Assembly (NCBI GenBank): GCA_047602425.1
Contig: JASGHG010000001.1
Span: 2,976,001 to 3,040,000 of the forward strand
Length of the DNA: 64,000 bases
Source: Nibricoccus sp.
GTDB taxonomy: Bacteria; Verrucomicrobiota; Verrucomicrobiia; Opitutales; Opitutaceae
Direction of reading: 5' to 3'
Part shown: in pieces, positions 64 to 17,863 of the stretch
Numbering within the stretch: position 1 is the stretch's first letter
Layout: the number at the start of each line of letters is the position of its first letter
Program-made: the position numbers and the translations under genes
Notes under the pieces: generated by a model
The model's database searches: none
The model's input: the letters and a program-made list of their open reading frames with translations, nothing else
What the model was told of the DNA's origin: nothing

Positions 64-363
64 ATGAAAAAACCGGTCACACGCTCGCCGCTCGATTTGC
101 TGCCGCTACATCAGAAACAGGCTGTCATGGCCTGGCTGACGACGGGTGGTAAGCACGGCCAGGGCATGAGCTACGAGGACGCCAGCGCGAAGCTGAAGGC
201 TGAGTTCGGCGTGCGTGCCTCTGCAACGGCTCTGCATGCCTTCTACCACCGCCATCGCGGCGCGCCGACTACGCCGCAGGTGCAGACCGCGTTCGATGCC
301 AAATCGAACGTACTCACAATTTCGATACAGATAAACCTCAACCTCAATCCCCAAAAAACATGA
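64..363 (+). CDS. DUF3486/Mu gp27-like HTH protein (short, 99 aa)
   Basis: RSPLDLLP...AWL...SYEDASAKLKAEFGVRASATALHAFY resembles the N-terminal HTH of DUF3486 proteins; ATGA overlap with next ORF. Confidence 0.55.
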   Translation: MKKPVTRSPLDLLPLHQKQAVMAWLTTGGKHGQGMSYEDASAKLKAEFGVRASATALHAFYHRHRGAPTTPQVQTAFDAKSNVLTISIQINLNLNPQKT

Positions 364-926
364 ACCCTACGACTGAAACAGCGACTGCTCCCACCCGTGC
401 CCCCGAATGCGATGGCGACTGGAAACACCTCGAATTCAATGCCCGCCAAAAAATCGAGACACGCCTATTAATCGGCGCGCATCTGTTCAACGAAGCATTG
501 AAAGGCAGTGTCGCAGACATCCAGAGCGCTGCTTTTAGAATTGAAGAAGCCGGGCTTTTTGAGGGCACGTATTACGCTGGCGACAGTTGCACCATCAAAA
601 ATATTATACGGTTGGTAGAAACGCTGAATGGCGGATTGAACGAAGCCTTTCCCCTCTGCTACGCCGCACTGCCCGCGCATCTGAATGTCAATTTTATGCC
701 GTTCGACCAGGCGGTTTCCTTTTTTAGGCAAGAGGTATTTTGGACAACCAAAGGTGTCGAACACATGCACCGGTGCGAGGAGATGATTTCCAAGATGCGT
801 GAAGTCTACGCTTTGGTTCGTAGGGTGATCGATGAAATCGATCACTCGACGGACGATGGAATTTACCAGGTGCGCAACAGTGTACCTGCGATCCCGGCGA
901 ATCTATTCTTCGAAAAAGCTGTGTGA
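360..926 (+). CDS. hypothetical protein (188 aa)
   Basis: ORF coupled by ATGA overlap to the upstream gene; no recognised motif. Confidence 0.65.
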   Translation: MNPTTETATAPTRAPECDGDWKHLEFNARQKIETRLLIGAHLFNEALKGSVADIQSAAFRIEEAGLFEGTYYAGDSCTIKNIIRLVETLNGGLNEAFPLCYAALPAHLNVNFMPFDQAVSFFRQEVFWTTKGVEHMHRCEEMISKMREVYALVRRVIDEIDHSTDDGIYQVRNSVPAIPANLFFEKAV

Positions 927-927
927 C

Positions 928-1164
928 ATGCCTCAACCGCAACCAGACACCGAGATCGTGACCCCGTGGTTTATCTTCACGCATGAGCGTGGCTACGTGG
1001 TGAACGCCGAGACCGTGACGAAGGCCATTTCGCAATGGCGAAAGAGTCACAAAATCGGCTATATCTGCGGGGTGATTCGCGGTGCGGTTGCGGAGGGGCA
1101 GCTGGGGGCGGTCAGCGCCACGGCAATTTATGGTGTGATTTGCTGCGGAGGAAAAACGCCATGA
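928..1164 (+). CDS. hypothetical protein (78 aa)
   Basis: ATG 1 nt after the previous stop; its TGA overlaps the next ATG (ATGA), filling the operon exactly. Confidence 0.55.
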   Translation: MPQPQPDTEIVTPWFIFTHERGYVVNAETVTKAISQWRKSHKIGYICGVIRGAVAEGQLGAVSATAIYGVICCGGKTP

Positions 1165-2723
1165 GCGAACCAGGCCTAAACTACAAAGTCACGGTGTCCG
1201 GTGCGTCGCAAGGCGCGGCCGATGTCAGCAAGCTCGCTGACGCCTCCGGCAAAGTCGCTGACGCCACCGGCAAGGCTGCGCCGCAAGCGAAAGGCCTTGC
1301 CGATGCGATCTCTTCGCTCGGTAGCCGTAACAACCCCGCGAAGGACGCCCTTGAGGGTCTGAGCAGCGCTGCCCGTGGTGGAGAGGGGTCAGTCTTCGGC
1401 CTCACGAAGGCCTTCCGCGCATTTCGGGAACTCATCAACGGAGGCTTCGCGGCCCTCGGCCCTGGTGGTATTCTAGTTGCCGGATTGGGTCTGGTGATCG
1501 GTTTGCTACCGAAGATCATCGAGCTGTTTAAAGGTACGAGCAAATCAGCCGAAGAACTTGCCGCGGAGTCGAAGAAGGCAGCCGACGAGGTGAAGGAACT
1601 GGGCCAGCAACGAATGGAGGCGTTGGCCGCTGGTTTCGCCGCCGCCAATGAAGCGGCAAAGAAGGCAAACGCGGAGTTCGAACGCGCACTTAACCTTCAG
1701 AAGCGTCTAAACGAGGCTGCCCGTAATGCAGAACTCGCCGAAAATCCCGATAAGGCCAAAGAGATCAACGCGAAATACGATCAGAAAAACAAGGCGCTTA
1801 CCCTCACTGCAAAAGAATTTGCAGCCTCCCAAGCAGATGAGGTGGTCAAAGCTGCCGCTTCAAATCAAGAGGATGCTTTCAACGCCGAAGTCAGGGCTAA
1901 AAAAGAACTCATCGAACTGCTAAAAAAAGAGGGTGAGTTAAAAAAACTGAATGCCCTTATTGAGCAAAATAAGTATACATCCGAACTCTCGAAGGAGAGC
2001 GTAGCCGAGCAGAAAAAGCGCGAGGATCAAGCGAAAGCGTTACAAAATCAAATCGCCAAAAAACCGGAGATTGAAGCGGAAGTGGCGGCTCGTATAAAAG
2101 AGTCCCAGCGAGCCGCCGACAACCTCACCAAAGCCAAGGATACCCAATCCACCGCACGAGCGGAATTGAAGACTGAGGAAATTGGTCAGAAGGCTGAAGC
2201 GGACAGCAGCCGTAGAATAGAAAATGTGGAGGAAAAAAAGCGAATCAGCGAACAACTCAGCGATGCCACAAAGCGCAGGCAGAATGCCGGAGATCGGTCT
2301 GAGTTCCTTGCGGCAGCTCAGGATGAAATTGCGGCGCGCAACGCGCTGAAGAAACCTGCTGGGAGAGGAAAGTCTGAAGCGGCGAACGCAGAGCAAGCGC
2401 CCGCACTCGAAAAAGCAGCTGAGGAAATTGCAGATAAAAAAGTTGATGACAGACCGCTGAAAGAGGCCGCGAGTGCTATCTCAACGGCAATCGAACAGAG
2501 CGTGAGCGATAGTAATCGAGCCATCAGTGAGGGTGCTCAAGCCATTCGTGCCGCAGTGGGCGAAAGAATGCAGGTGCCAGATTTAGAGCCGTTGGTGAGC
2601 ACCGTGAAACAAGGTTTTAGCACGGTAAATAATGCGATGCGTAATATGCAGCAGCAGATAAACCAGAATAGCTATGCCATCAGGGAGATCATCAATCAGA
2701 TGTCATCGGCGAGGAACAAATAG
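1161..2723 (+). CDS. tape-measure-like coiled-coil protein (520 aa)
   Basis: Ala/Gly-rich N-terminus, hydrophobic GPGGILVAGLGLVIGLL segment, long Ala/Glu/Lys helical region; start taken at the ATGA overlap at 1161. Confidence 0.55.
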   Translation: MSEPGLNYKVTVSGASQGAADVSKLADASGKVADATGKAAPQAKGLADAISSLGSRNNPAKDALEGLSSAARGGEGSVFGLTKAFRAFRELINGGFAALGPGGILVAGLGLVIGLLPKIIELFKGTSKSAEELAAESKKAADEVKELGQQRMEALAAGFAAANEAAKKANAEFERALNLQKRLNEAARNAELAENPDKAKEINAKYDQKNKALTLTAKEFAASQADEVVKAAASNQEDAFNAEVRAKKELIELLKKEGELKKLNALIEQNKYTSELSKESVAEQKKREDQAKALQNQIAKKPEIEAEVAARIKESQRAADNLTKAKDTQSTARAELKTEEIGQKAEADSSRRIENVEEKKRISEQLSDATKRRQNAGDRSEFLAAAQDEIAARNALKKPAGRGKSEAANAEQAPALEKAAEEIADKKVDDRPLKEAASAISTAIEQSVSDSNRAISEGAQAIRAAVGERMQVPDLEPLVSTVKQGFSTVNNAMRNMQQQINQNSYAIREIINQMSSARNK

Positions 2724-4906
2724 TGAACACTGAGCGAGCAACGATCATCCCCGCCTCTCCGGCTTGGAATCGGCTAAACGCCCGAACCAAGCAACAGGCG
2801 CATAAGTTGCGGCAGGCGCTTGCGTCTGCACTGGAGTTGCACCGCAGTGGCCGCTGGGGGCGCGCTGAAATCGAATCTGCGGGGCTTCGTGACTACCAAC
2901 AGGTATTTGGGCATGCCATCACGCCTCGGCATTTCTGGAGGCTTTTGGATCTCGTGGTCGAACGCGATGCTGGTCGCAACCAGTTCGATAATTTGGGGTT
3001 TTATTTGCCCGGCCGCATTGTCCGCAAGCGCCCGGCCGATTCGCTCGACCGCTATGCAAAGCAGCTGCCGCGACTCTGCACCACGGTTGCAGGGTGCGCA
3101 AATATTGCGGAGCCCACCGCGCAGGAAATCCTTTTGGTGTGGGATGCGGCCTGTTCTGAATATCAGGCGATGATCGCTGTAGGGATGACTGACGGGAAAG
3201 CCCGCCGCCTCGTAGTTGCTGCGCTTGATGTCAGCGGGCTGCCGCTGGCTCTGACGAGGGCCGCACTCAGGCGCAGTTTCTGCCGCAAGCTCGATCGCTG
3301 GATTGAGGGCGGGCGCAAACCAGCCGCCATCCGCGATCAGCGGGAGTTGAAGTGCGGCCGTAAACTTCAAGCAGTGCCGACGCCTGAAGATTTGAATTTG
3401 CTGACGGCGCGAGCCCTGCACCTACGCAGCGTGCCAGCGGCTTGGCGTGAGTTGCTCCATGCGGGGGAATTGTCTCCAGCCGTGACACAGAGCTACATCA
3501 GCCAGACGGCGAGCAAGTCCTATTGTCCGGAGTCGATCCGAAGGGTGATTGTTCATCGCATTGGCCTCGTCGACGACATTCACCACGGCCCAAGGCAAGC
3601 CACATTGAACGGGGCGCATATCACGCGCGATTGGTCGGATGTTGCGCCTGGGGATTGGCAGCAAGCCGACGACGTGACGTTGGAGGTATACTATTGGTTT
3701 AAGGACGTCAGCGGCGTGCCGCAGGTTCTGCGCGGGCAGTTCCTTTTGATGATCGATCTTCGCAGTCTACGGATTCTGAATTTCGCCCTGCACGCGGAAA
3801 ACAACTACAATGCCAAGGTGATTCGTGGCCTGATGTTGCGTACGCATGACGCTTACGGTCTACCCCGGCGAGGCTATGCGTTTGGAAAAGGAATTTGGAA
3901 AAGCTCGCGACTGGTTAAGGGCCGTGAACTTCCGAAGGGAGACGAAATCCCCAACGAAGAAACCGAACTGGGCTTCCGCGATTTCGCGTTGGAGTTTAGG
4001 CACGCCAAGCTCCCTAGGGCGAAGCCAATCGAGCGCGTAATTGGGCTGTTGCAAGCCAGACTGCGCGATCAACCAGGCTGGGTTGGTCCAAACGAAATGA
4101 AGGAAAAATTTGAGCGAGTGCAGGAGCGTCTGCTCGCTGCCCGTGGCGGTTCGGTGCATCCCTCGAAATTCTTTTTGCATCGCGATGAGTGGTTTGAGCG
4201 GCTTCAGGAAGTTTGCGATGAGTACAACAATGAGCCGCAGCAAGGCCGCATGCTCAATGGGTTGTCTCCCCGGCAATATTGGGAGGCCAATTTTGACTAC
4301 GCCCGTCCGTTGGTGAAACTGGGGCAGGGTACTCGCTACCTTCTGGCAAATCATCGTCGCCCTGAAAAGGTCACGCGCAACGGAATCCGGATCGTCGTCG
4401 GCAAAGAGATCTGCAATTTCAAGAGTCCTGAGCTGGGCCATCACGTTGGGAAAATTGTCCAAGTGTACTTCGATCCTGAGGACATGAGCAGCGTATTTGT
4501 AATGGTAGATTGTGAGGGCAAAAGTGCGTTGGTTGTACCACGTGAAAAGGGTGTTCCCGCCATGGACGCGACGGATGAGCAACTACGCACTGCTCAGGGA
4601 ATTAATGAGGCGATGAATCAACCTGCTCGCACCCTGTATGCTGAGATAAAAACATATTTCCCGAAAAATGGTCCGTCACTCTTCCGCCGGGAGATCGCTG
4701 ACGCTGTGACCGTTGAGCTGGGTCAGGACATCGCTGCCGAACAAGACGCTATCCGCCGTGAGAAAACGCAACAGGTGCAGGACGCACGTTCGCTGAAACG
4801 GCGCCGGCGTGAATTGGGGCTTCGCCCTCAGTCAGAACAGATCTCTACTGAGCGGCAGTTGGCTGCGCTAAAACTTTTTGAGGAGGCTCGCCGTGACGAC
4901 ACGTAA
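2723..4906 (+). CDS. Mu-type DDE transposase/integrase (727 aa)
   Basis: WQQADD, LMIDLRSLRILNF, YGLP, PRAKPIER, YNNEP..GLSP, and a C-terminal KVTRNGIRI...VYFDPED Mu-like barrel; GTG overlaps the upstream TAG. Confidence 0.85.
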   Translation: MNTERATIIPASPAWNRLNARTKQQAHKLRQALASALELHRSGRWGRAEIESAGLRDYQQVFGHAITPRHFWRLLDLVVERDAGRNQFDNLGFYLPGRIVRKRPADSLDRYAKQLPRLCTTVAGCANIAEPTAQEILLVWDAACSEYQAMIAVGMTDGKARRLVVAALDVSGLPLALTRAALRRSFCRKLDRWIEGGRKPAAIRDQRELKCGRKLQAVPTPEDLNLLTARALHLRSVPAAWRELLHAGELSPAVTQSYISQTASKSYCPESIRRVIVHRIGLVDDIHHGPRQATLNGAHITRDWSDVAPGDWQQADDVTLEVYYWFKDVSGVPQVLRGQFLLMIDLRSLRILNFALHAENNYNAKVIRGLMLRTHDAYGLPRRGYAFGKGIWKSSRLVKGRELPKGDEIPNEETELGFRDFALEFRHAKLPRAKPIERVIGLLQARLRDQPGWVGPNEMKEKFERVQERLLAARGGSVHPSKFFLHRDEWFERLQEVCDEYNNEPQQGRMLNGLSPRQYWEANFDYARPLVKLGQGTRYLLANHRRPEKVTRNGIRIVVGKEICNFKSPELGHHVGKIVQVYFDPEDMSSVFVMVDCEGKSALVVPREKGVPAMDATDEQLRTAQGINEAMNQPARTLYAEIKTYFPKNGPSLFRREIADAVTVELGQDIAAEQDAIRREKTQQVQDARSLKRRRRELGLRPQSEQISTERQLAALKLFEEARRDDT

Positions 4907-6383
4907 ACAAGACCCAGCAACAAAAGAATTCCGGCAAGACGCCTATGCGTCGTCAGCCGAGTACGAACGCGGCATCCTCGGAAACCGGGTGGCCGCGCGG
5001 TGCCAGAAGCTTACCGATCCCGAAGAGATCGCCATGCTTTGGTGGTTGCAGCAGGTTTCATGGAGAGACGGCGGTATTGAGAAATTCACAGAGCAGTTTC
5101 TGGTTGAAAATGAAACCATGCTCGGGACGCCATCGATGCATCGATTTGGGATGAAAAAAGGGCAGGTCTACAACGCTGCCCAGGTGCGCAAAGTCCGGTC
5201 GGAACTAGGGGCGCCTGAGTGCATGGAGTTCCCATTGAGAGACGATAAAAGGGCGGATCGCCTAGCAGATTTTCTAGACTTGCCGGACTACGAGGATTTG
5301 ACGGTGTACCCGGAAAGTTACCCAGCATCGGAATTTCTGGATGTTTGTACAGGTTCGCTGCGTCAGTTTTCCAACTGGCTCAAGGGAATGTTGGTCGATC
5401 CCCAAAGTGGCAGCCTTCGGAGTGGATATTGGAGCATGTCTGGTTTCTGGGATGCGCTCTGCAAATGGCGGGATCGCGAGCGTGAAGTTGCGCGAGCCGC
5501 CATTGTCGAAACCGACGTTACGCGCCGGGTATTCGAAGAGTTGGATTTCGCTTACGAGACGCGGAGTTTTGTTCTGATCGAAGGCCGTGAGGGAATCGGC
5601 AAGAGCGAGGCGGCGCGTTGTTGGTGCGACCAGCGGCCCGGCCAAGCCATCTACGTTCGGTTGGAGTCAGGCAGCGATGAGACGACGCTTTATCGCTCGA
5701 TTGCCCGCGAGATCGGAACGGCGTGCAGCTACCAACGAAAAGCCGTTGAGATGCGAGCCCGGATTCAAGACGCACTGCAACCTGGTCACCTGATGCTCGT
5801 GCTCGACGAAGCGCATTTTCTGTGGCCAACCAGTGCCCGCAGTGAACGCACCACGCCCAAGCGCCTGGACTGGCTGAGGACGGCATTGATCGATTTTAAC
5901 GTCCCGATTGCGCTCGTGAGTACACCGCAATTTTTCACGCAACAATGCGACCGATTTAGAAAGGCGGGATGGAATTCGAATCAAATCCAGCGCAGGCTCA
6001 CTCGTTTGGTTCGGTTGCCTGAATCTCTGAGCAAGGAGGATGTTCTCGGCGTTGTCGCGCGCAACTTCCCGGAGGTCCCTCTACGTACAGCCAAAGAGAT
6101 TGCGGCAGTTGCCCTCTTGAGCGTCGGTTATCTCACGACCATCGTGAGCCTGCGAAAGCGATTTGATTTTCTTAGTTCGCGCCGGCCGTCAACCGCGCCA
6201 GCCGATCTATTGCGCGAGATTCTGGATGAGAAATCCGCTGAACTTGATTTGGCCGTGCAGCCCGTCGAAAAACCCGTTGCAACGCCAACGCAGGCCATTT
6301 GCAGGGTGCGTCCAGGGGCCCCGCAGGGCCGTGGAAACTTTGCGCCTCCGCTGATTGTTCAGCCTGAGTTGAGCGTCGTTTGA
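4893..6383 (+). CDS. MuB/TniB-like AAA+ ATPase with N-terminal extension (496 aa)
   Basis: Walker A GREGIGKS, Walker B MLVLDEAH; SD AGGAGG at 4881-4886 before GTG 4893; overlaps the transposase stop. Confidence 0.85.
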   Translation: MTTRKQDPATKEFRQDAYASSAEYERGILGNRVAARCQKLTDPEEIAMLWWLQQVSWRDGGIEKFTEQFLVENETMLGTPSMHRFGMKKGQVYNAAQVRKVRSELGAPECMEFPLRDDKRADRLADFLDLPDYEDLTVYPESYPASEFLDVCTGSLRQFSNWLKGMLVDPQSGSLRSGYWSMSGFWDALCKWRDREREVARAAIVETDVTRRVFEELDFAYETRSFVLIEGREGIGKSEAARCWCDQRPGQAIYVRLESGSDETTLYRSIAREIGTACSYQRKAVEMRARIQDALQPGHLMLVLDEAHFLWPTSARSERTTPKRLDWLRTALIDFNVPIALVSTPQFFTQQCDRFRKAGWNSNQIQRRLTRLVRLPESLSKEDVLGVVARNFPEVPLRTAKEIAAVALLSVGYLTTIVSLRKRFDFLSSRRPSTAPADLLREILDEKSAELDLAVQPVEKPVATPTQAICRVRPGAPQGRGNFAPPLIVQPELSVV

Positions 6384-6456
6384 CTTTTGTTTTCGAACCA
6401 CTCCCGGTTTGCGTTTTTTCACGCAATCGCCGGGAGTTACCTCTTACCCTGATGTC

Positions 6457-6504
6457 GCGGACATTTTGCTATTAAAAAGCGGACAGAATCAAAACGAAGA
6501 TACA
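6457..6504. repeat. candidate transposon right end: two 22-bp units starting GCGGACA, then terminal ACA
   Basis: GCGGACA at 6457 and 6479 (22-bp spacing), followed by TACA (TGTA on the - strand). Confidence 0.45.
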
Positions 6505-6553
6505 GAGCTCCAAGTGGACCTTGTACAATGCCCCATATGCGGTAGGCTGTTTG

Positions 6554-7066
6554 GTGAGCAAAGCTTTCACTAAAGAAGACGACGGGGGCCAACCGCCACT
6601 CGTAGCACGGCTTCAATCACCACTGAGGTCAGGCGAAAGAAATTACCTGACTCCGGCGGGTGCAAAGAAACTACGCGAGGAACTGGAGCAATTAGCCCAC
6701 GTAGAGCGTCCTTTCCTCCTGGCGGCTGCACGCACGGACGATCAGGCCAAGCAGCAGCTTGCGGTGCTGGACCAACGTCTCGCCTATCTGGAGGAAAGTC
6801 TGCGGACTGCCGAAGTGCAGCCGGCGCCGGTGGGGGAAGAGAACCGTGTGCGGTTTGGTGCGAGTGTAACGGTTAAGGAGAATTCCGGCGAAACAACGAC
6901 CTATCGTCTGGTTGGGGTCGATGAAACGGATCTAGATCGCAACTGGGTGAGCTGGCAATCGCCGTTGGCGCGCGCGCTACTTAACCGGCAGCTGGGTGAA
7001 CGTGTGACTTTCACCTTTCCCGCGGGAAAGTCAGAGCTTGAGATTACGAAGATCGAATACTTGTAA
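6554..7066 (+). CDS. GreA/GreB-family transcription elongation factor-like protein
   Basis: NYLTPAG..L.EEL N-terminal helix; C-terminal VRFGASVTV...YRLVGVDE...SWQSPLARAL. Confidence 0.85.
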   Translation: MSKAFTKEDDGGQPPLVARLQSPLRSGERNYLTPAGAKKLREELEQLAHVERPFLLAAARTDDQAKQQLAVLDQRLAYLEESLRTAEVQPAPVGEENRVRFGASVTVKENSGETTTYRLVGVDETDLDRNWVSWQSPLARALLNRQLGERVTFTFPAGKSELEITKIEYL

Positions 7067-7102
7067 CATCACTTCTCACTCAAACATATACAAACGGTAA
7101 AA

Positions 7103-7190
7103 GGTAGGGACGACCCGCCGGGTCGTCCGTCAACGTTGTTCCCCGATGGCTCGTGCACAACAGCGGTCGGCCCGGCGGTCCGACCCTACC
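7103..7190. repeat. GTAG-type REP doublet (REPIN-like)
   Basis: GGTAGGGACGACCCGCCGGGTCGTCCG and an inverted GGTAGGGTCGGACCGCCGGGCCGACCG, each a GTAG foot plus hairpin. Confidence 0.7.
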
Positions 7191-7411
7191 CATCGAACAC
7201 CGGCATTATTATACGTTGGAAGGAGAAACTCTATTAGCCATCGTTGTAACGTCCCACCCGAGATGAGTGCGACGTGTGATCTTAGCGAAAGCGGGATAAA
7301 TCCGGAGCAAGCTGGTCGCGTTGCACCAATCGGGCTCTGCAGACTTTTCCCGTATAGGGGCACCTTGCGTCGACTCATTGCAACCGGACCGTCTCATTTC
7401 GGTCTATCGCA

Positions 7412-8509
7412 ATGATGCCCTCCGAGCACGCTGCCACTTTGGAAAAAATTCCTGTCGCCGACGGAAAACTAAGCGCTAAGGAGGCGCATCTTCGGTACGT
7501 GTCGGACCGCGCAGCGGGATTTTCGCGGCGAAAGCAAGGAGACCGGATCACCTATTTTGACCAGCACGGGCGGCGGTTGACAGATGCAGCGGAAATTTCG
7601 CGGATCCGTGCACTGGCCATTCCACCGGCTTGGGATGGGGTCTGGATTTGCCCGCATGCGCACGGGCATGTACAGGCGACCGGGCGCGATGCGCGGGGGA
7701 GGAAGCAATACCGTTACCATCCCGAGTGGCGGCGTGTGCGGGATCATGCCAAATATGATCACCTCCTAGCCTTCGCTCATGCGCTCCCCAAGATCCGGCG
7801 CCGGGTCGCAAATGATCTCCGTCGTCGCGGTCTTGGGCGGGACAAGGTCCTTGCGGCGATGGTCCGTTTGCTTGAGACAACGCTGATCCGTGTCGGGAAT
7901 GAGCAATACCTCAAGCAAAACCATTCAGTTGGACTAAGCACCCTTCGCGACCGACACGTGCGGGTGAGCAAGGGCACGGTGCATTTCTCGTTTCGTGGCA
8001 AGAGCGGCAAGGAACATGAGATCGACCTCGACGACCCAGGCTTGGCGCGCATCGTGCGGCGGTTACGGGAAATTCCCGGTCAGGAATTGTTTCAGTACAT
8101 TGACGAAAACGGAACGTCACAAAAAATTTCTTCGACCGACATCAACGCCTACCTCCACGAAATAGCGGGGGCGGAGTTTTCCGCGAAGGATTTCCGGACC
8201 TGGGCGGCGACCGTACACGCGGCGCGCGCGCTTGCAGCCACACCAGCTTTTCGCACGGATCGCGAAGCGCGGCACAATGTTGCAGCCGCCATCCGGAGCG
8301 TCGCCGAACAGCTGAGGAATACCCCGGCAATCTGCCGGAAATCCTACGTGCATCCGGCAGTGGTTGAAGGCTATCTCGCCCGGCGTATTCTAAAACTGGT
8401 TACAAACAATACCGAATCCGCGAAACCAGCCCCTCGTTTCGGTCTCAGTGCCGAAGAACGAGCCTTGTGCACATTTCTCCGAGCGGCTGCTCGCTCCGCG
8501 CAGAGATGA
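7412..8509 (+). CDS. DNA topoisomerase IB (bacterial/poxvirus-like)
   Basis: GRDARGRKQYRYH, IRVGNE, FRGKSGK, KDFRTW, NTPAICRKSYVHP (catalytic Tyr). Confidence 0.92.
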   Translation: MMPSEHAATLEKIPVADGKLSAKEAHLRYVSDRAAGFSRRKQGDRITYFDQHGRRLTDAAEISRIRALAIPPAWDGVWICPHAHGHVQATGRDARGRKQYRYHPEWRRVRDHAKYDHLLAFAHALPKIRRRVANDLRRRGLGRDKVLAAMVRLLETTLIRVGNEQYLKQNHSVGLSTLRDRHVRVSKGTVHFSFRGKSGKEHEIDLDDPGLARIVRRLREIPGQELFQYIDENGTSQKISSTDINAYLHEIAGAEFSAKDFRTWAATVHAARALAATPAFRTDREARHNVAAAIRSVAEQLRNTPAICRKSYVHPAVVEGYLARRILKLVTNNTESAKPAPRFGLSAEERALCTFLRAAARSAQR

Positions 8510-9061: not shown

Positions 9062-11995
9062 TCAGGGCGAAATTTCGAAGCCGCCGATATCGAGCGTTTC
9101 CTTGTTTTCCTTCAGGCGAACGGTAATGCGCTCTTCTTTTTGCTCCCTGGTGCCGAAATGGGTGATCAGACGGACTTGCGCGGTGACGGGGCCGAGCGCG
9201 TTTTGCCGGCGATCGCCGAAATAGTTGATTTGGACTTTGTATTTCCCGGGCTTCGGCGTGCGGAGAATAAACTCCTCGGGTCCGTAGCCGCCGGTGAAAT
9301 CGCGCGACATATGGCCGCCTTGGTAGGTGAGCGGATGGTTGTACATGGCGACTTCGCCGTTGGGATCGGTGACCCAGAGGTCGATATCGCAGTCATTGGC
9401 ATCCCACGTGAGAATTACCCGCGTGGTAACGGGAAGGTTTTTCAGCAGGCGGCGGTCGATCTTGCTGAGGTCGAGTTTCGCATCGCAGGTCGAGACGATG
9501 GCGTTGAGTTCGGCTAACGCCAGCTGTTCGATCTCGGGAAAACGGCCATCCCAAGGTTTGAAAACGATGACCCAGAGCAAATCGACGGCGCGCTGGTATT
9601 CCTTCGTTGCGGCGCAGACGAGCGCGAGGTCGCGGTGACTCTGAGGTTCGTCGGGACGCAGGATCAGCACACGCTCAAAGAGCGGTTTTGCGAGATCGGG
9701 GCGGTCGGCCTGCGTCAGGCGATGGGCGAGCACGCGCAGCAGGGCGACGTCTTCGAGTTCCATTTCGGCCAGGTTCGAAAGGATCCGAAGCGCCAGTTCG
9801 GGTTGCTTTACCTCAAAGAAGTAGTTGGCTACGTCGAGGAAAAAACCGGGCTGTTCGGTGTGGTCGGCGCGTTCTTCGAGGTAGATGGTGTAGGCTTTTT
9901 CAGGCGATGTCCGGCGGAGGTGATCGAGGTAACCGGCATTGGGTTTCCAGCTTTGCAGCGAAATGGTGGCGGTGGGTGTGGAGGCGTCGTCGGCAGAATC
10001 GCCTTTGCGTTTTGCTTCCAAAGCAGTGATTCGGCCCACGGCTTCGCGACGTTCGCGTTGGGTATCCTGTCTGCGGCCTGCCGGCGCTTGGCTGACCGAA
10101 AACGAATTTAGCACAATCACATCGTCCGAACTTCCTGCTCTGACTGAAGCTGGTGCGGCCATTCTCTCCGCATCTCCATAAATAACTTTGTCGAAGTTAG
10201 TCGTTTTAGGCGGTTCGTCTTTGGGAAATTTCTTTTCCCACCAAGCGACCCGATCCTTGAAAGCTCGGAGCACAGCATCGAAGTGGATATCGAAGGAGTT
10301 TTTGCGCTCAGCCTCGGTTCGATTCTGCACGGTGCGCCATTCGTTTCGGAGTTCGGCGGGTGGCGTGATGTTGTAGCGCACGTAATCAGCCAGCGTTTCG
10401 AGCACGATCAAGGAGGTATTCGCGGTGACGATTCCAAAATCCTGGCTCGTGCGGCGAATATCTTCGCGGTTGGCCGTGGGATTGAGGGATAAAAGGTTGA
10501 GCTTGGTCGTAGCCCAGGCGCGCGCGGCGAGACGGCTCGGATTTTCGCCGGAGCAAAGGACGAGTTCATGGTCGCGGGCGTCGCTGTTGTTGTGTCCGAT
10601 GCGGACGCGAATGCTCGTCTGGGGAACGCGCAAGAGGCCGGTCACAACCAATGACTCAGCGGTAATCGGCGTACCCGGTTCGGGGAAAATTTGCGCGACG
10701 GTTTCGGGGTCGTAATTGACGGCAATCACACGGAGCGATTCGGCGCGAAGTTTTTTGGCCGAATCGGCGGACTCGGTTTCAAGCAAATTCACAAATTCTC
10801 CATTGTGGCGTGCGGCGATGCAGCGTAGCTGGGCTGGATCGGCTTTGCCGCACGCGAGAATTGCGTGCACCGAGCCTTTGAGCGGAAGCGGGGTTTGTGC
10901 GGATTGGCTGCCATAGTTGAAAAGCCCGTCGGAAAAGAGCAGCCATTCGTCCATGGGCAGATTGTCGGCAAGACCGTCGAAGGAAGTCGCGCCATCGTAC
11001 ACGGTTTTCTTGAGCTCGGCTTTGAGTGCGGACCATTTTCCATCGCGAATGGCGAACGAGACCGGAGCCTCGGCGCGATCGCGAAGGCGGATGAGCTGCA
11101 CATCGACGTTTTTCACCAGCGCAAACCATTCGTCGAGCAAGGCGAACTCCTTGTCATGATCGCGTTCGCGGCCCGAACCGGAGCTGTCCCAAAGCAGTCC
11201 GACGGTCCGCGGAGCGGGACGAGCCTTGGACGAACCAGTTGCTTGAACCTCGGCGTAAAAATATTCCTTGTCCTCCTGTTTTCCGGTAATGACGCGGGCG
11301 TGTTCAGATGGCGGCAGCATCAGTTCGAAAAGTCCACGCGCCTTAAAATCGGTCTTTTCGACGTCGAGGAAGCGGGCGTCGCGCCAAGCGGGCAGATCAA
11401 GGCCGAGCGTTGTGCGGGTTTTGGGCTCTTTCGTGCCATCAGAAAAAGCCACAACGGAAAGACGGAAGGTTTTGAGCGGCTTTTCGAAATTTAGGTTTAT
11501 ACGGTAGATCGGCTCGCCGGCGTTGCGGACGAGATCCTCCTGGTACGCGAGCACGATTCGACGAGTGCCGTGGGCAGGAATGGGAAATACGCGGGCTCGG
11601 TAGTTGTTGCCCTCGGTCTGTTCGAGAAGTCCCGGATCGACACGGCGGCGTTCAATCTCCTCGAAGACGACGCGGCCCTGAGTTTTTTCAACCGGCATGG
11701 CCTCGCGGAGGCTGCCGTTAATATCGAGGGCGAAGCGAACGACGCTCTGACCATCGAGCAGGGGAAAAACAAAATTGCCCTCAAGGACGCGCGCATTGGG
11801 ATTTTTGAACACCAAATCGAAAGTGGTGACGGCGATGCGGCCGGTGACCTCGGTGGAGATGACGGCGGATTCGACGACCACGGGTGAAACATTTTTTTCA
11901 GTCAGTTCCATGCGTTGCGCGCGAACGGGAACGGGTCCGATGGAAAAAATGCCGAGCAAAAGGAAACGTTGGAACAGCATGAGAGGGATCTTCAT
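9062..11995 (-). CDS. exported VIT-domain / vWA-like / TPR / DUF2135 protein
   Basis: Signal peptide; VIT motif (FKNPNARVLEG..FPL, DPGLLE); LLWDSSGS; C-terminal WDANDCDIDLWVTDP...DFTGGYGPEEF. Confidence 0.8.
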   Translation of the reverse strand: MKIPLMLFQRFLLLGIFSIGPVPVRAQRMELTEKNVSPVVVESAVISTEVTGRIAVTTFDLVFKNPNARVLEGNFVFPLLDGQSVVRFALDINGSLREAMPVEKTQGRVVFEEIERRRVDPGLLEQTEGNNYRARVFPIPAHGTRRIVLAYQEDLVRNAGEPIYRINLNFEKPLKTFRLSVVAFSDGTKEPKTRTTLGLDLPAWRDARFLDVEKTDFKARGLFELMLPPSEHARVITGKQEDKEYFYAEVQATGSSKARPAPRTVGLLWDSSGSGRERDHDKEFALLDEWFALVKNVDVQLIRLRDRAEAPVSFAIRDGKWSALKAELKKTVYDGATSFDGLADNLPMDEWLLFSDGLFNYGSQSAQTPLPLKGSVHAILACGKADPAQLRCIAARHNGEFVNLLETESADSAKKLRAESLRVIAVNYDPETVAQIFPEPGTPITAESLVVTGLLRVPQTSIRVRIGHNNSDARDHELVLCSGENPSRLAARAWATTKLNLLSLNPTANREDIRRTSQDFGIVTANTSLIVLETLADYVRYNITPPAELRNEWRTVQNRTEAERKNSFDIHFDAVLRAFKDRVAWWEKKFPKDEPPKTTNFDKVIYGDAERMAAPASVRAGSSDDVIVLNSFSVSQAPAGRRQDTQRERREAVGRITALEAKRKGDSADDASTPTATISLQSWKPNAGYLDHLRRTSPEKAYTIYLEERADHTEQPGFFLDVANYFFEVKQPELALRILSNLAEMELEDVALLRVLAHRLTQADRPDLAKPLFERVLILRPDEPQSHRDLALVCAATKEYQRAVDLLWVIVFKPWDGRFPEIEQLALAELNAIVSTCDAKLDLSKIDRRLLKNLPVTTRVILTWDANDCDIDLWVTDPNGEVAMYNHPLTYQGGHMSRDFTGGYGPEEFILRTPKPGKYKVQINYFGDRRQNALGPVTAQVRLITHFGTREQKEERITVRLKENKETLDIGGFEISP

Positions 11996-12131
11996 GGGGA
12001 TGAAAAAAGGATGACGAAAAACGGCCGTCCGACGAGCTGATAGTCGAACAGTATCATCCCTACAACGACCTGGCTGCCGTTTTATTAGCCGCGAAGTGTT
12101 TTCGGCGTACTCCAAGAATCGCCAGAGACGT

Positions 12132-12152
12132 TTGTCATCTAATAGATGACAA
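12132..12152. repeat. palindrome TTGTCATCTA-N-TAGATGACAA (copy 1)
   Basis: Perfect 10-bp arms; same core as 25935-25975. Confidence 0.7.
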
Positions 12153-12190
12153 CGGCATTGGTTGCCGGCGGACGTTTCTATTGTCGCCGG

Positions 12191-13069
12191 TCAAATCTGT
12201 TTTGCGGCGCGGCGCTCGTAGGCGAAGAGATATTGTTGGGCAAGTCCGGCCAGTGGGCCGAAATGGACACGGCCGAAATGGGCGGCTTGGGCGGGCTTCC
12301 AATCGTCGAGACCGTAGCGGCGAGCCATGGTTTTAAGAATCCAAGTATCGACGGGAAACGCTTCGAGGCGGCCGGCGCCGAAGAGCAGCACGCAGTCCGC
12401 CACTTTTTCGCCGACACCGGGGAGGGTGCAAAGACGTTCCTTTGCCTGGTTGTAGGGAGCGGTTTCGGTGGTGTCGAGCCAGCCGGGGTTTTTTGCGAGG
12501 AATTGCGCGGTTTCCCGTATATGTTTGGCGCGAAAACCGAGCTTGCACGCCCGTAAGGAGATTTCGGATACGCGGGCAAGTTCATCCCATGTTGGCAGAC
12601 GATGAATGCCCGGCGCGATTTCGGCACCGTGGCGCTCGGCGAGAAGGGCGATCATTTGTTTTATCTGCACAATTTGTTTCGTGGCGCTGCACAGGAAGCA
12701 CAGCAGCGTTTCGCCGAATGGCTGGCGAAGAATGCGCAAGCCGGGAAACGTATCGAGGCAAATGGCGAGATGGGCATCGCTGCGCCAGGGGAGGGCGTCG
12801 ATTCGGGCGTCGTGGAGGGAGCTGAGGTTAAGGTAGTCCGCTAAAGCGTGCGCGGTTCCGTTGGCGCGGTCACAAGGCGCACTCCAGAGGACCTTTTCGT
12901 CGCCTGCGACGGAAAGCCGGGCGACGTTCTCGCCCCAAATGCCGATCCAAGTGCCATCGACCTGGCGGTGCCAGCGGAAACTTTGGCCGCCATCGAGTAG
13001 TTCGGCGAGGACGTCCGTCTTGATTTTCAACTGAAGCGGTTCCCATTTGTTCCAGAATGACACGGGCAT
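12191..13069 (-). CDS. 8-oxoguanine DNA glycosylase (OGG, HhH-GPD family)
   Basis: GQSFRW, GLRILRQ, LGFRAK, HhH LPGVGEKVADCVLLF, FPVDTW, AGLAQQYLF. Confidence 0.88.
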   Translation of the reverse strand: MPVSFWNKWEPLQLKIKTDVLAELLDGGQSFRWHRQVDGTWIGIWGENVARLSVAGDEKVLWSAPCDRANGTAHALADYLNLSSLHDARIDALPWRSDAHLAICLDTFPGLRILRQPFGETLLCFLCSATKQIVQIKQMIALLAERHGAEIAPGIHRLPTWDELARVSEISLRACKLGFRAKHIRETAQFLAKNPGWLDTTETAPYNQAKERLCTLPGVGEKVADCVLLFGAGRLEAFPVDTWILKTMARRYGLDDWKPAQAAHFGRVHFGPLAGLAQQYLFAYERRAAKQI

Positions 13070-13229: not shown

Positions 13230-13706
13230 GTGCCCACGAACGCCCACAAAACCCGTCTCATTCTTGGTCTGATCCTTGCCTCGACGATCGGGCTTTTCGC
13301 TGGCGTGGGCGGGTACACGTTTTATTACGGTCAGGGTTTTTCCTACCTCTCGAACGACCCGCGGGCCTGCGTGAATTGCCACATTATGCGTGAGCAGTAC
13401 GACGGCTGGCAAAAGGCGGCCCATCACGCCGTGGCGACCTGCAACGACTGCCATACGCCGCACGATCTCATCGGCAAGTACATGACCAAGGCATCGAATG
13501 GCTACCATCATTCGAAGGGCTTCACGCTGCAGGATTTTCACGAGCCAATCATGATCAAGCCCTCCAATTCGGCCGTGCTGCAAAAAAACTGCGTGGCCTG
13601 CCATAAAGGAATCGTCGACGGCATCAATACGCACCCGGGCGATCCGAAGAAGATGCTCAATTGCGTGCACTGCCACCGCGAAGTCGGGCACGGGCCGGTG
13701 CGCTGA
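13230..13706 (+). CDS. nrfH: cytochrome c nitrite reductase small subunit (tetraheme, NapC/NirT family)
   Basis: N-terminal TM helix, SYLSNDP, four CxxCH (CVNCH, CNDCH, CVACH, CVHCH). Confidence 0.92.
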
Positions 13707-13755
13707 AAAAAGCGAAACTATTTAACAACGCCAAAATATCCACCCCATTTCCGCC

Positions 13756-15257
13756 ATGAAATCCAATCCTCTTCACCGCCAGCGTGGCCTTGCTCTTATG
13801 GGCTATGTGCTTGTCATTTTTCTCGTGGCTGCCGCCGCCTTCGGCGTGTTTCTGCTCTATCAAAACATTGTTACACGCAAAGCCGAAGCCACTCAGCACG
13901 CCTTCAAGGTGGTCGAACTCGACGAGACCACGGTCAATCCCGCGAAGTGGGCCAGAATTTTCCGCGTCAATACGACAGCTACAAACGCACGGTGGAAAAT
14001 TACGGCACCAAATACGGCGGTGCCGGCAGCGAGGCGGCTCCGATCAGCAAGCTCAAGGCGGACTCGCATCTGCCCGAGATTTTTGCCGGTTACGCTTTCG
14101 CAATCGACTACAACCAACGTCGCGGCCATGCGCACATGCTCGAAGACCAGCGCACCACCAAGCGCGTGACCGAGCGTCCACAAACCGGCGCCTGTCTGCA
14201 TTGCCATGCGAGCAACACCGTTCTCTACCGCCAGGAAGGCCTCAAGCAAGGCGCCGCTGGCACAATTGACGAACCCATGGACTCCGCCAACGGACGCGCC
14301 CAGTTGATGGCCGGCTTCGAAGCGGTCTGCAAGATGCCTTACAATAAAGCCACTGAGCTAGCCCAGCATCCCGTCGCGTGCATCGATTGCCACGATCCCA
14401 AGTCGATGGAACTGCGCGTGACCAAGCCTGGCTTTATTCGGGGCATCGACGCCCTGGCTCGCAGCTCCGAGCCGGTGGCGCATCTGCCTTCGATTGAGCG
14501 CTGGCGCATGGGCAATCGCAAAGAGCCCTACGAACCCAACCGCGATGCTTCCCGCCAGGAAATGCGCTCGATGGTCTGCGGCCAGTGCCACGTCGAATAC
14601 TACTGCGGTCCCAAGATGACGCTCTTCTTTCCTTGGGGCAAAGGCCTGAAGGTCGAACAAATCGAGGCGACCTACGATGAAACCAAGTTCTCCGATGGGC
14701 ACCGCTTCTTTGATTTTGCACACGCCAAGACCGGCGCAGAGGTCCTAAAAGCGCAGCACCCTGAATTTGAACTGTGGAGTCAGGGTATTCATGCCCGCAG
14801 CGGTGTAAGCTGTGCCGATTGCCACATGCCTTACGTTCGCGAAGGCGCGATCAAGGTCAGCAGCCACCACGTTCGCAGCCCGCTCATGAACATCGCGCAG
14901 GCCTGCCAGACCTGCCATCGCTATCCGGAGTCGGAAATCAAGGCCCGCGTGGAAGCCATCCAAGATCGCACTGCGGCTCTGATGGATCGTGCGGAAACCG
15001 CGGTGGTCGGACTCATCCGCGCGCTTGAAACGGCCAAGAAACAAGGCGCCACGCCGGAGCAACTCGCACCGGCTTATGAGCTCCAGCGCAAGTCCCAATG
15101 GCGCGTCGACTTCATCAACGCGGAAAACTCCATGGGCTTCCACGCTCCGCAGGAAGCCGCGCGCATCCTCGGCGAAGCGATCGACTATGCCCGTCAGGGC
15201 GAATTGCTCGTCCTCGGACTCAAGACGGCGACGACGGCCGCCGTCACCACACCGTAA
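13756..15257 (+). CDS. nrfA: ammonia-forming cytochrome c552 nitrite reductase (one base missing at ~13949-13951)
   Basis: Two ORFs join as ..[12 protein letters not shown]; five Cxx[19 protein letters not shown]. Confidence 0.9.
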
Positions 15258-15283
15258 ACGGTCCACCGAACTACATTGAAGCG

Positions 15284-15312
15284 CCAAAGCCCGCGTTCAA
15301 CGCGGGCTTTGG
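15284..15312. terminator. bidirectional terminator-like hairpin
   Basis: CCAAAGCCCGCGTT-c-AACGCGGGCTTTGG between convergent genes. Confidence 0.65.
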
Positions 15313-15334
15313 TGTCCAGTTGTCGGATGAAATC

Positions 15335-15694
15335 TTACTCCAACTTGTTCGCGAAGAGAGGCGCGTACATCAACAAGACCGTGACGGTGGCGACGAAATA
15401 GGTGCGCGCATCACCAACTGACAGGAGAAACGTCGCGATGATGCCGGACCCTTCCGCGAGCGACAGGCCGACGATGAATACCGGCAACACCTTGGTCAGG
15501 GATTTGAACTTTGGCAGCAGGATGAAACGTACGGCGATCGAGCTGACGAGCGTGACGAAAGGGAACCAGCGCAAAACCGATTCGGGCGCGGACGCTTCCG
15601 AATTTTTGGCCGGGGCTAAAAACAAATAGACCAGGCAAAAGCCGGAAACGATCGCGAACCAGATGATCCAAAGAATGAGCCGCCGGGAGTGCAT
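15335..15694 (-). CDS. hypothetical membrane protein (about 4 TM)
   Basis: Four hydrophobic segments in 119 aa. Confidence 0.7.
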   Translation of the reverse strand: MHSRRLILWIIWFAIVSGFCLVYLFLAPAKNSEASAPESVLRWFPFVTLVSSIAVRFILLPKFKSLTKVLPVFIVGLSLAEGSGIIATFLLSVGDARTYFVATVTVLLMYAPLFANKLE

Positions 15695-15928
15695 GAACGT
15701 GGATTGTTTTAGGATGATCAAGGGACTGGGCACAGCACATTGGCCCCAATGCGCTGGGATGAGAGCGACTTGCCAAGCGCGTTGAAGCCCAGAGTGCTTC
15801 ACCTAGGACTTTGCTTTTCTCCAAGCGAATTTCAGCCAATCGCACGGTTGTGGCGAACCAATTTGTTCACACACAGAAAACCTTCCAAGCCGTTGGCCGA
15901 ACTCGGAAGGGAAGGGGACGATTACCGC

Positions 15929-16222
15929 TTAGGCTGCGGGAGCCAGCAAATCGGCGAACTCCGGGTGGCGCTCGATGAAACGCGCGGTGTAGGAGCATTG
16001 CGGGACCACTTTGAGTTTCTCCGCGCGGGCCCACGCGAGGGCGGACCGAACCATTTGTTCGGCGAGGCCGTGTCCACGCAGTGCGGGAGGAACGTACGTA
16101 TGAATAATGGTCACGCGTCCGCCGGCACGCACGTATTCGATGAGCGCGGTATCTGTGCCCGTGTTGATTTCGAAACGGCTGGCGGCGATGTCGTGGTGGA
16201 TGGTTTCGGGGTTGCTGGTCAT
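15929..16222 (-). CDS. small GNAT acetyltransferase (YjdJ-like)
   Basis: IIHTYVPPALRGHGLA...VVPQCSY. Confidence 0.85.
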   Translation of the reverse strand: MTSNPETIHHDIAASRFEINTGTDTALIEYVRAGGRVTIIHTYVPPALRGHGLAEQMVRSALAWARAEKLKVVPQCSYTARFIERHPEFADLLAPAA

Positions 16223-16366
16223 GGCTGGGGCAAGTTGCTGGGGGTTGTCAGTTGCGCAAGGGAAGCAAAGAGATTTGTGCAGATTTTGCCACTCTTATGT
16301 CATAGCTGCGTCCGGTCTTGACCGCCTTCGGCCGAGGGCGCTTTTTGGCGAAATCCTCTTTTCGTT

Positions 16367-17602
16367 ATGTCCTCCTCCAAACCACGTAAAGTAGCCCTTC
16401 TCACTGCTGGCGGTCTTGCGCCGTGCCTCAGCTCCGCCCTTGGCGGCCTGATCGAACGTTACACGGAGATTGCCCCTGAGATCGAAATTATCGCCTACCG
16501 CGGCGGTTACAAAGGCCTGCTGCTTGGCGACAGCTACGCGGTGACGCCGGAAGTTCGCGCCAACGCGCACATTCTCCATCGCCATGGCGGCAGCCCGATC
16601 GGCAACAGCCGCGTGAAACTCACCAACGTGAAAGACTGCGTGAAACGTGGTTTGGTGAAAGAAGGTCAGGACCCGCAAAAAGTCGCGGCCGACCAACTCG
16701 TCAAAGACGGCGTCGATATTCTTCACACCATCGGCGGCGACGACACCAACGGTGCCGCAGCCGACCTCGCGGCGTTTCTCGCGAAAAATAATTACAACCT
16801 CACCGTCATCGGTCTGCCCAAGACGATCGACAACGACGTGTTTCCCATTCGCCAGTCGCTTGGCGCGTGGACCGCGGCCGAACAAGGCGCGCGCTATTTC
16901 CAGAACGTCGTTGCCGAACACGGTGCGAATCCCCGCATGCTCATCATCCATGAAGTGATGGGCCGTAACTGTGGCTGGCTCACGGCCGCGACCGCGCAGG
17001 AGTACCGCAAGCTGCTCGACCGTCAGGAATACGTGCCGGGACTTGGCCTCAGTCGCGACCGCCTCGAAGTGCATGCTGTTTTCATCCCCGAGATGGCGGT
17101 CGATCTTGCGGCCGAAGCCGCGCGCCTAAAAGGCGTGATGGATCGCACGGGCAACGTGAATATATTCATCTCCGAGGGCGCCGGCGTCGAAAGTATCGTC
17201 GCCGAAATGACTGCCAAGGGCCAGGAAGTGCCGCGCGATGCGTTTGGCCACGTGAAACTTGATGCTGTTAATCCTGGCAAATGGTTCGGCGAGCAGTTTG
17301 CCAAGATGCTCGGCGCTGAAAAAACGCTCGTGCAGAAGAGCGGTTATTTCGCCCGCGCTGCCGCAGCCAACGTCGACGATCTGCGCCTCATCAAAAGCTG
17401 CACCGACCTGGCCGTCGAATGCGCATTGCGTCGCGAGAGCGGCGTGATCGGCCACGACGAAGACAAGGGCAACATTCTTCGCGCCATCGAATTCCCGCGC
17501 ATCAAGGGCGGCAAGCCGTTCAATGTCGATCTGCCCTGGTTCGGCTCGCTCCTAGCCGCCATCGGCCAGCCAAAGGGCGCGAAGGTCGACGTGAAGCATT
17601 GA
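16367..17602 (+). CDS. pfp: pyrophosphate-dependent phosphofructokinase
   Basis: TAGGLAPC, GGDD (PPi-type Asp), PKTIDND, EVMGR. Confidence 0.9.
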   Translation: MSSSKPRKVALLTAGGLAPCLSSALGGLIERYTEIAPEIEIIAYRGGYKGLLLGDSYAVTPEVRANAHILHRHGGSPIGNSRVKLTNVKDCVKRGLVKEGQDPQKVAADQLVKDGVDILHTIGGDDTNGAAADLAAFLAKNNYNLTVIGLPKTIDNDVFPIRQSLGAWTAAEQGARYFQNVVAEHGANPRMLIIHEVMGRNCGWLTAATAQEYRKLLDRQEYVPGLGLSRDRLEVHAVFIPEMAVDLAAEAARLKGVMDRTGNVNIFISEGAGVESIVAEMTAKGQEVPRDAFGHVKLDAVNPGKWFGEQFAKMLGAEKTLVQKSGYFARAAAANVDDLRLIKSCTDLAVECALRRESGVIGHDEDKGNILRAIEFPRIKGGKPFNVDLPWFGSLLAAIGQPKGAKVDVKH

Positions 17603-17629
17603 GAGCGCGACCTGTTTTTTGACTTCCAT

Positions 17630-17659
17630 GCCCGGAGCTCCTGCTCCGGGCTTTTTTTT
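17630..17659 (+). terminator. Rho-independent terminator
   Basis: GCCCGGAGC-tcct-GCTCCGGGC followed by T8. Confidence 0.85.
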
Positions 17660-17863
17660 GGCGGTTGGGAACGATGGAAGCACGATGATGCCGTCAAATT
17701 GTGCGACTTTCGATTGCAGAACTCGGCGGTTGGCACTCGCGTCCAATTCGCTGGCAGCCATGCGAGCGAAAGCGGTCTGCCACGAATGGCGTCTGTTCCC
17801 GTCTCTTGACCCCGCCGAGCGATTGCGATCATTGTGCATTTGTTACCCTCCCCACATCACCGA

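Follow-up and report, generated by a model that had tools for sequence, protein, structure and literature searches.

The stretch analysed here (the window: 64,000 nt, G000:C1:2976001-3040000, from the 5.16-Mb single-contig genome of a Nibricoccus sp.) holds the larger part of a mobile element, an 8.7-kb unit inserted behind a tRNA gene by a transposase and ATPase pair of MuA/MuB type. The family to which it belongs unites a Mu engine, Tn7-like site choice and satellite-like working, and site-specific insertion behind tRNA genes without TniQ is its most solid new feature. We consider the element probably to be a phage satellite that moves by transposition and so amounts to a natural mini-Mu with site-specific insertion. 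A more specific proposal, to which we give slightly less than even chances, is that the family forms an undescribed satellite class with Mu-type transposition, a MuB-like selector reading the universal T-arm motif of tRNA genes (the mraZ promoter in a sister lineage) and tape-measure-led piracy with a variable addition of portal, protease, capsid and tail-tip genes.

To our knowledge, integrative satellites have so far been described only with tyrosine or serine integrases, and site-specific transposase/ATPase systems only with TniQ/TnsD or Cas as a requirement; the family seems to break both rules. No report of a transposase-based satellite or of TniQ-free tRNA targeting was found in the literature consulted, which consisted mostly of non-subscription papers, supplements aside.

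An element with terminal repeats behind a tRNA gene

The earlier note on this DNA had described six co-oriented open reading frames (ORFs) joined by ATGA and TAGTG overlaps, a 14-nt overlap and a 1-nt gap, and each of these junctions proved exact. The six coupled ORFs make up the right three-quarters of an element of 8,740 bp, the left end of which lies ~2.2 kb before the window start and the right end at window 6504 (Table 1). The operon does read toward a true right end, with terminal CA at 6503-6504, and the left end and target-site duplication that the earlier note had wished to see located were found upstream (L003 7765; GAGC). From left to right, the element comprises the left end, a repressor, a divergent 76-aa ORF, 72-aa and 229-aa ORFs, ORF1-4, the transposase, the ATPase and the right end.

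Table 1. Features of the element and its target. Positions are those of the window unless given in locus L003, which covers the upstream parts (window position = L003 position minus 10000). HTH, helix-turn-helix.
Feature	Position	Strand	Remark
Target tRNA-Leu(TAG)	L003 7665-7748	+	
Left target-site duplication, GAGC	L003 7761-7764		
Left end, 26-bp repeat starting TA	L003 7765-7790		
Second repeat copy	L003 7879-7904	+	
Third repeat copy	L003 7962-7985		inverted
cI-like HTH repressor	L003 8066-8776	-	
cro-position ORF, 76 aa	L003 8748-8978	+	divergent from repressor
72-aa ORF	L003 8968-9186	+	
229-aa ORF	L003 9222-9911	+	
ORF1, 99 aa, putative HTH	64..363	+	ATGA overlap with ORF2
ORF2, 188 aa	360..926	+	1-nt gap to ORF3
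ORF3, 78 aa	928..1164	+	ATGA overlap with ORF4
ORF4, 520 aa, virion protein of tape-measure type, from homology to prophage tail-module genes	1161..2723	+	TAGTG overlap with transposase
MuA-like transposase, 727 aa	2723..4906	+	14-nt overlap with ATPase
MuB-like AAA+ ATPase, 496 aa	4893..6383	+	
Right end, 26-bp terminal repeat	6479..6504	-	closes with CA on + strand
Right copy of target-site duplication, GAGC, 4 bp	6505..6508	+	

The left repeat starts 16 nt past the CCA of tRNA-Leu(TAG) and is the inverse of window 6479-6504; beyond the first two bases the two ends agree at 20/24 positions, and the extra repeat copies lie ~115 and ~200 bp internal to the left end. GAGC abuts both element ends as a 4-bp target duplication. 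A duplication of 5 or 6 bp (GAGCT, AGAGCT) can also be read here, as can one of 5 bp at L024 and L026, the left end beginning with T; this reading was dropped, as L069, L071, L070, L092, L097, L147, L175 and G181 show 4 bp in register. A head/tail module, the presence of which upstream the earlier note had named as decisive against its satellite interpretation, was sought in the DNA before the window, and only the left end, the repressor switch and two small ORFs are there. No second copy of the element was found in the genome, nor any other end behind its remaining 84 tRNA/tmRNA genes.

The assignment of the last two genes as a MuA/MuB-like pair of DDE transposase and AAA+ ATPase is borne out by profile matches. 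The transposase matches phrog_310 (E 6e-24) and Mu-transpos_C (E 2.7e-7), its family profile finds the MuA core (1bcm, E 9e-5) as the sole match below E 0.01 among PDB sequences, and its relatives number 830 cluster representatives at E 0.001. Residues D316, D317 and E437 are present here and invariant across 70 homologs. Codon 388 (3884-3886, GGA) encodes Gly here and Glu in 70/70 homologs; the position presumably marks the end of the strand bearing MuA's second acid, and from conservation and the structure of MuA its Glu is probably catalytic. Because Gly388 replaces a probable catalytic Glu, the copy is likely dead, and it would probably be inactive by itself unless complemented.

Transposase homologs occur in 14/200 genomes of the host's family (three of them weak and distant), in 15/400 genomes of its order, distant ones included, and at 26 metagenome loci, several of which are duplicates. 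In a quick tree, 29 element transposases form one clade (SH-aLRT 100) apart from five more distant ones, three of which (L152, L155 and L159) sit in evident Mu-type prophages; by sequence, the element transposases are thus one clade apart from those of Mu-type prophages of the same hosts. The prophage genes of L159 and L160 include terminase, portal, Gam, protease, capsid, tape measure and fibre. In G822, the stretch from L159 4007 to L160 ~14400 is an apparently complete Mu-type prophage of ~30 kb, with its terminase in two ORFs and head genes across both arms.

Only the transposase and ATPase occur in every locus. Eighteen distinct elements could be delimited at both ends; they span 8,740-15,486 bp. 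The 4-bp duplication is exact in 11 of these and one (L028) shows 5 bp in register; a twelfth 4-bp duplication (GGAC) joins L033 and L037, two contigs of G184. These counts leave aside loci with one end or none within reach and no adjacent tRNA (L030, L031, L035, L038, L090, L094, L099, L102-L105, L108, L109, L111-L113, L146 and L148-L150). TGT opens the right end in each of the 18 complete elements. Left ends often begin TA, TT or TC (L003, L024, L026, L095, L114, L151 and L175), the second base being relaxed on this one side only. Over 13,918 bp, L104 and L105 (1-13918) are identical, and their flanks differ immediately past the right end, which may reflect either recent movement or an assembly effect.

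Choice of target site

Twenty distinct elements have an end behind the 3' end of a tRNA or tmRNA gene. Their targets comprise Leu (11, with five anticodons), Arg (3), Met (2), Ser (2), Gly (1) and tmRNA (1), two being 3' fragments (L095, at a contig start, and L107). The left end faces the tRNA in 17 of the 20 and the right end in three. Counting from the G of GTTCRA in the T-loop, the distance to the element is 37-40 nt in 19/20 (exactly 38 in ten) and 43 nt in one; the spacing past the tRNA 3' end is 13-16 nt in most elements. A 7-nt interval behind all 85 tRNA/tmRNA genes amounts to 5.8e-5 of genome positions. The ends were partly searched for behind tRNAs, which is a bias; among the 13 tRNA-linked complete elements, ten are confirmed by the far end and duplication. 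Because the spacing holds also at genes without an encoded CCA, and because transposases as close as those of L026 and L175 (67% identical) use different isotypes (Leu and Met genes), the shared T-arm rather than the isotype is likely to be the targeting signal.

Other complete elements lie upstream of a gene that we take from its translation to be mraZ, in two genera (L027 and L028), upstream of what is presumably nrdR (L097), and at two unassigned sites; Rfam gave 0 matches on the 16 loci without an adjacent tRNA call. The mraZ pair forms a basal branch (support 86) together with L073 and L148, and the three aligned members of this branch differ in the first 30 ATPase residues. At L028 15364-15440, a second left end stands right behind the right end with flanks that fit a 5-bp duplication, which suggests repeated insertion at the mraZ site.

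No TniQ was found in Pfam scans of the element's ORFs or of 148 family ORFs. Of 351 family ORFs called, 162 were selected, a choice that passed over transposases, ATPases, repressors and short unclustered frames, and the 148 were scanned out of these; most remaining family ORFs, with the alternative frames of the element, were scanned later. A genome-wide PF06527 (TniQ) search was blank, as was its control, so that a very divergent TniQ may have escaped it; the Portal_Mu genome search likewise missed its positive controls.

Tn7-like elements (CAST I-D, I-B2 and V-K, and archaeal clade VII) share with the family a DDE-type transposase plus AAA+ ATPase, and they too insert behind tRNA genes with a bias in orientation and at a set distance, whereas the family is without detected TniQ/TnsD, TnsA or Cas and has virion cargo in place of Cas. 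In PMC10293859, the Tn7 clade is characterised by TniQ/TnsD and homing to tRNA-Leu proceeds via TnsD; CyCAST is there described to insert 30-33 nt behind the tRNA, as against 13-16 nt in most family elements. Archaeal tRNA targeting is likewise TniQ-dependent according to 10.1101/2025.07.27.667033. With IS21/Tn552-type elements the family shares a two-gene core without TniQ, multiple end repeats and a short duplication. That of IS21 is about 4 bp. The family differs in inserting site-specifically and carrying phage cargo, and the IstA/IstB models of Pfam and NCBIfam match no protein of the element; for IS21, PMC10293859 records no reported target selector.

The ATPase matches phrog_296 (E 5e-18), AAA_22 and TniB, and its structure model has a pLDDT of 85.5. 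Over residues 202-454 MuB ranks first and TnsC next: MuB (8xvb) is the top match by profile (E 5.5e-9), by Foldseek (rank 1) and by VIA (Z 19.5, rmsd 3.4, 232 aligned), and ShTnsC is weaker (Z 16.5). MuB stands above TnsC in three comparisons, at 16-20% identity only; by sequence and predicted fold, the ATPase thus appears nearest to MuB. At the N-terminus comes an additional, conserved helical domain of ~190 aa (residues 1-190), the profile of which finds nothing significant among PDB sequences or prophage MuB N-termini. Fold searches with the full ATPase model barely probed this domain, and a single-sequence model of it (pLDDT 38.5) was set aside. Because no TniQ was found and no genes besides those for transposase and ATPase recur in every locus, the N-domain is the best candidate target selector, although L097 and L106 fit this less well. 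That the MuB-like ATPase recognises T-arm DNA through the N-domain seems to us somewhat favoured, a host factor and the transposase being the alternative selectors. If the proposal is true, two proteins would suffice to deliver 9-15 kb of cargo to a harmless position that every bacterium offers (37-40 nt from a tRNA T-loop), and domain swaps could directly probe how target selection arose between Mu and Tn7.

Virion-type cargo and the satellite reading

The earlier note had named ORF1 gp27-like and ORF4 a tape-measure-like protein (TMP). Both labels rest on homologs, because neither protein has a direct gp27 or TMP match; for ORF4 this holds for the models of Pfam and PHROGs. The ORF4 profile finds homologs in 7/300 genomes of the host's family. 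Four of these (L170-L173) belong to late operons of prophages, where head and tail genes precede them and the gene directly after them is of the family found after the PHROGs-confirmed TMP of prophage L155. In other elements, too, proteins that occupy the TMP position are matched by the profile (97%, E 7.5e-11), and in the ESM Atlas the nearest annotated clusters include TMPs at 0.89, a lead only. A Pfam CoV_S2 match of ORF4 (E 7e-4, below cut-off) was dismissed as coiled-coil noise. ORF1 is 42-51% identical to counterparts in four other elements; PF11985 (gp27) is matched by one of seven ORF1 family members (E 2.5e-4) and phrog_426 by the homolog in L025 (E 1e-4); the similarity to Mu gp27 or small terminase is weak and confined to one homolog. 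In L033 and L092, weak homologs of ORF2 occupy the corresponding place, and the ESM Atlas gave no usable match for it; ORF3 has homologs in L033 and L175. Ahead of ORF1, at L003 9994-10035 (window start to 35), a GC-rich hairpin is followed by a T run, terminator-like, and could be a candidate gate on the operon from ORF1 to the ATPase.

Transposases that never sat beside TMP-like genes would likewise have told against the earlier note, and this is not what the family shows: a tape-measure-type gene is present in 15/18 complete elements, 11 by PHROGs TMP matches and four of ORF4 type (the studied element, L092, L175 and L070). At least one virion gene occurs in 17/18, in a subset that differs in each, and none of the 18 has a full head-plus-tail set or a recognised large terminase. 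In its small genomes, with some virion-type genes but not those for an independent virion, the family resembles satellites. Portals are of Mu type in L027, L073 and L092 and of HK97 type in L097; Mu-type proteases occur in L026, L073, L106 and L114, major capsid in L114 and L147, scaffold in L025 and tail chaperone in L114, and G181 has a contiguous module of TMP, distal tail and tail-tip. In L106, the protease gene (11990-13036) separates the ATPase gene from that of the transposase, which is spread over two frames. Cargo shares 30-51% identity with prophage genes from related hosts, Mu-type and HK97-type alike, with pN/pS of 0.38-0.67 (six gene pairs; uncorrected and near saturation). A tblastn of prophage proteins against the 18 elements gave no terminase, at a sensitivity too low to recover the known portals and proteases, and a 132-aa ORF of L108 with a GpA_ATPase match (E 0.0088, below cut-off) was too short and weak to be called one.

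Such a composition invites comparison with Mu. Shared are the MuA-like transposase, an ATPase with MuB as top match, repeated end sites and a repressor switch, together with Mu-type portal and protease cargo in relatives. Mu makes a 5-bp duplication and inserts near-randomly, whereas the family shows a 4-bp duplication, fixed tRNA-linked sites, an ATPase with the extra N-domain, a size of 8.7-15.5 kb without recognised large terminase or full morphogenesis set, and A/B genes at the right end. Complete head, packaging and tail genes were not found between the ends in 8,740 bp (ORFs and alternative frames scanned). It is quite improbable, in our estimation, that these are independently decayed Mu-like prophages in which the ends survived along with whatever late genes chance left behind. 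The MuA/MuB-type pair, the Mu-type portals and proteases, the probable catalytic lesion of the studied copy and the existence of decayed members (L032 and L151) would suit such an origin; against it, none of the 29 clade loci was seen as a full phage, the 18 complete members keep to their small size across several families and classes, the gene order is reshuffled with Mu-type and HK97-type genes mixed, the A/B genes stand at the right end, and the reading frames of the cargo remain open at a pN/pS below 1. Furthermore, the full Mu-type prophages of related hosts in the same order use a separate transposase clade and a short ATPase.

A large terminase (phrog_2) was found in none of 8/9 element-bearing genomes, the studied genome included, in a search positive for the prophage-bearing G822 and for 11/14 controls; the carriers besides the studied genome are drafts, 96-99% complete. 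As no large terminase was found in eight of nine carriers, a helper would arrive by infection. Candidate helper-type prophages with homologous genes, of Mu type and HK97 type, occur in related hosts. The satellite interpretation of the earlier note is partly supported, by the upstream and TMP findings, by the likeness of the ATPase to MuB and by full Mu-type prophages in the same order; the helper may or may not be Mu-like, as the note proposed, since cargo homologs are also HK97-type. Given its probable active-site lesion, and with no helper found in the genome, the studied copy is probably stranded.

The missing terminase, the cargo subset that differs in each element and the HTH-only homologs at the gp27 position of L029 and L030 would also fit a tRNA-targeting transposon whose phage genes act as anti-phage decoys (dominant-negative tape measure, portal and protease) that protect the host, and which is not specifically packaged but spreads by other routes. 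Tail-interference defences against phages have reportedly been described, and L071 bears an ABC-three-component-type defence pair. We nevertheless hold this explanation to be unlikely: the cI/cro-type switch, along with an operon that couples transposase and virion genes, suggests that the latter are expressed on induction, together with mobilisation, the TMP, distal tail and tail-tip module of G181 exceeds a decoy's need, no conjugation genes turned up in the Pfam and PHROGs scans of family ORFs, and ORF1-4 have no defence match in PADLOC. The L071 genes, ABC-three-component/PDC-M68-like, lie at 14865-17790 in the left arm of that element.

If the element is a transposing satellite, we infer its induction, replication, packaging and selector as follows. 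The integrated element would stay repressed until a helper phage arriving by infection lifts repression. It would then be copied by Mu-type transposition, because no TnsA, primase or recombinase was detected, and be packaged in helper parts plus its own tape measure, which would replace the helper's to give chimeric tails, as shown for PLE11; ORF1-type HTH proteins may steer packaging or regulation. The delivered element would integrate behind a tRNA of the new host, its ATPase binding T-arm DNA through the N-domain and then fixing the spacing. Alternatively, the transposase may serve only for integration and excision, with copying left to helper or host machinery or to an unassigned ORF. This we judge very improbable, for no scan matched a recombinase, primase, Rep or TnsA and L104/L105 present one element with two right flanks, even though a single copy in the genome and strict tRNA targeting would agree with it, and ORF2, ORF3 and the 229-aa ORF have no assigned function.

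The proposed piracy has precedents among integrase-bearing satellites. With PLE11 and the EPIPs the family shares a small element with its own tape measure; it differs from them, compared by description only, in having a MuA/MuB pair, terminal repeats and a target duplication where those use integrases. PMC12987554 describes PLE11 of Vibrio cholerae as building chimeric tails with its own TMP, chaperone and baseplate hub, and notes tmp genes in other satellites too; the EPIPs of Mycolicibacterium are, according to PMC12822802, 11-kb elements with a TMP and a serine integrase. Tail piracy by a satellite tape measure would, if our reading is true, extend to an unrelated element type, and the family would be the natural counterpart of the laboratory mini-Mu. 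PICI, cf-PICI and P4 satellites have a repressor switch, small size, tRNA/tmRNA sites and, in some, head genes, all of which recur here in the divergent switch, the target sites, the head-gene cargo of some members and a size a third to half of a 30-kb helper. By contrast, no tyrosine or serine integrase, primase-replicase or att repeats were detected in the element, which leaves the tRNA intact and duplicates 4 bp. The element is consequently a member of neither Mu-like phages, Tn7, IS21 nor integrase satellites.

Several points weigh against the satellite reading. Strict site-specificity sits uneasily with replication by transposition. Cargo varies per element, one of the 18 (L107) is without a recognised virion gene, no common kit beyond TMP is evident, and the pN/pS values carry the limits given above. 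Five of the 18 complete elements lie away from tRNAs, L097 and L106 stand off tRNAs even though both retain the N-terminal motif of the ATPase, and seven of the 18 lack an exact 4-bp duplication. Where the gp27 label is concerned, ORF1 has no direct match in Pfam or PHROGs and its profile none to prophage gp27-position proteins, so that the label persists only through its homologs; the tape-measure label, upheld by the prophage homologs in TMP position, is not seconded by the canonical TMP alignment, to which ORF4 is unmatched. The catalytic role of position 388 is drawn from conservation and the structure of MuA. No helper was found in the studied genome, scans of viral contigs with transposase, ATPase and two alignments, which required short exact peptide patterns, gave no confirmed relative, and INPHARED tblastn matched neither transposase nor ATPase.

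The insertion site and neighbouring DNA

Upstream of the target tRNA lie genes for phosphatidylserine decarboxylase and for what, from its sequence, we take to be clpB. Among four congeners the same tRNA site is empty in two (G133 and G159), where a homolog of the gene at window 8537 comes directly after the tRNA; it holds another island in one, and in the fourth no tRNA was called in the fetched stretch. In the congener with the other island, G056 (L125, after 2675), the first frame of that island at tRNA-Leu(TAG), read by eye, is integrase-like.

Between the element and this conserved neighbour gene, window 6521-8509 contains a greB-like gene and one for a bacterial topoisomerase IB, together with a palindromic repeat. 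Host genes thus do follow the right end, as the earlier note had it, but they are not core neighbours of the tRNA: the stretch is not at the site in G133 or G159 and is accessory DNA at the same hotspot. The repeat (window 7077-7221) is a REP-like palindrome of ~140 bp with many genome copies, 72-85% identical.

Outside the window, two near-duplicate tRNA arrays of 16 and 22 genes (G000:C1:2388522-2391778 and 2425174-2431080) lie 34 kb apart with gene order kept, and probably represent a mobile tRNA array. Further along the window, at 13230-15257, is a cytochrome c nitrite reductase-like gene pair, presumably of NrfH/NrfA type, judging from its haem motifs.

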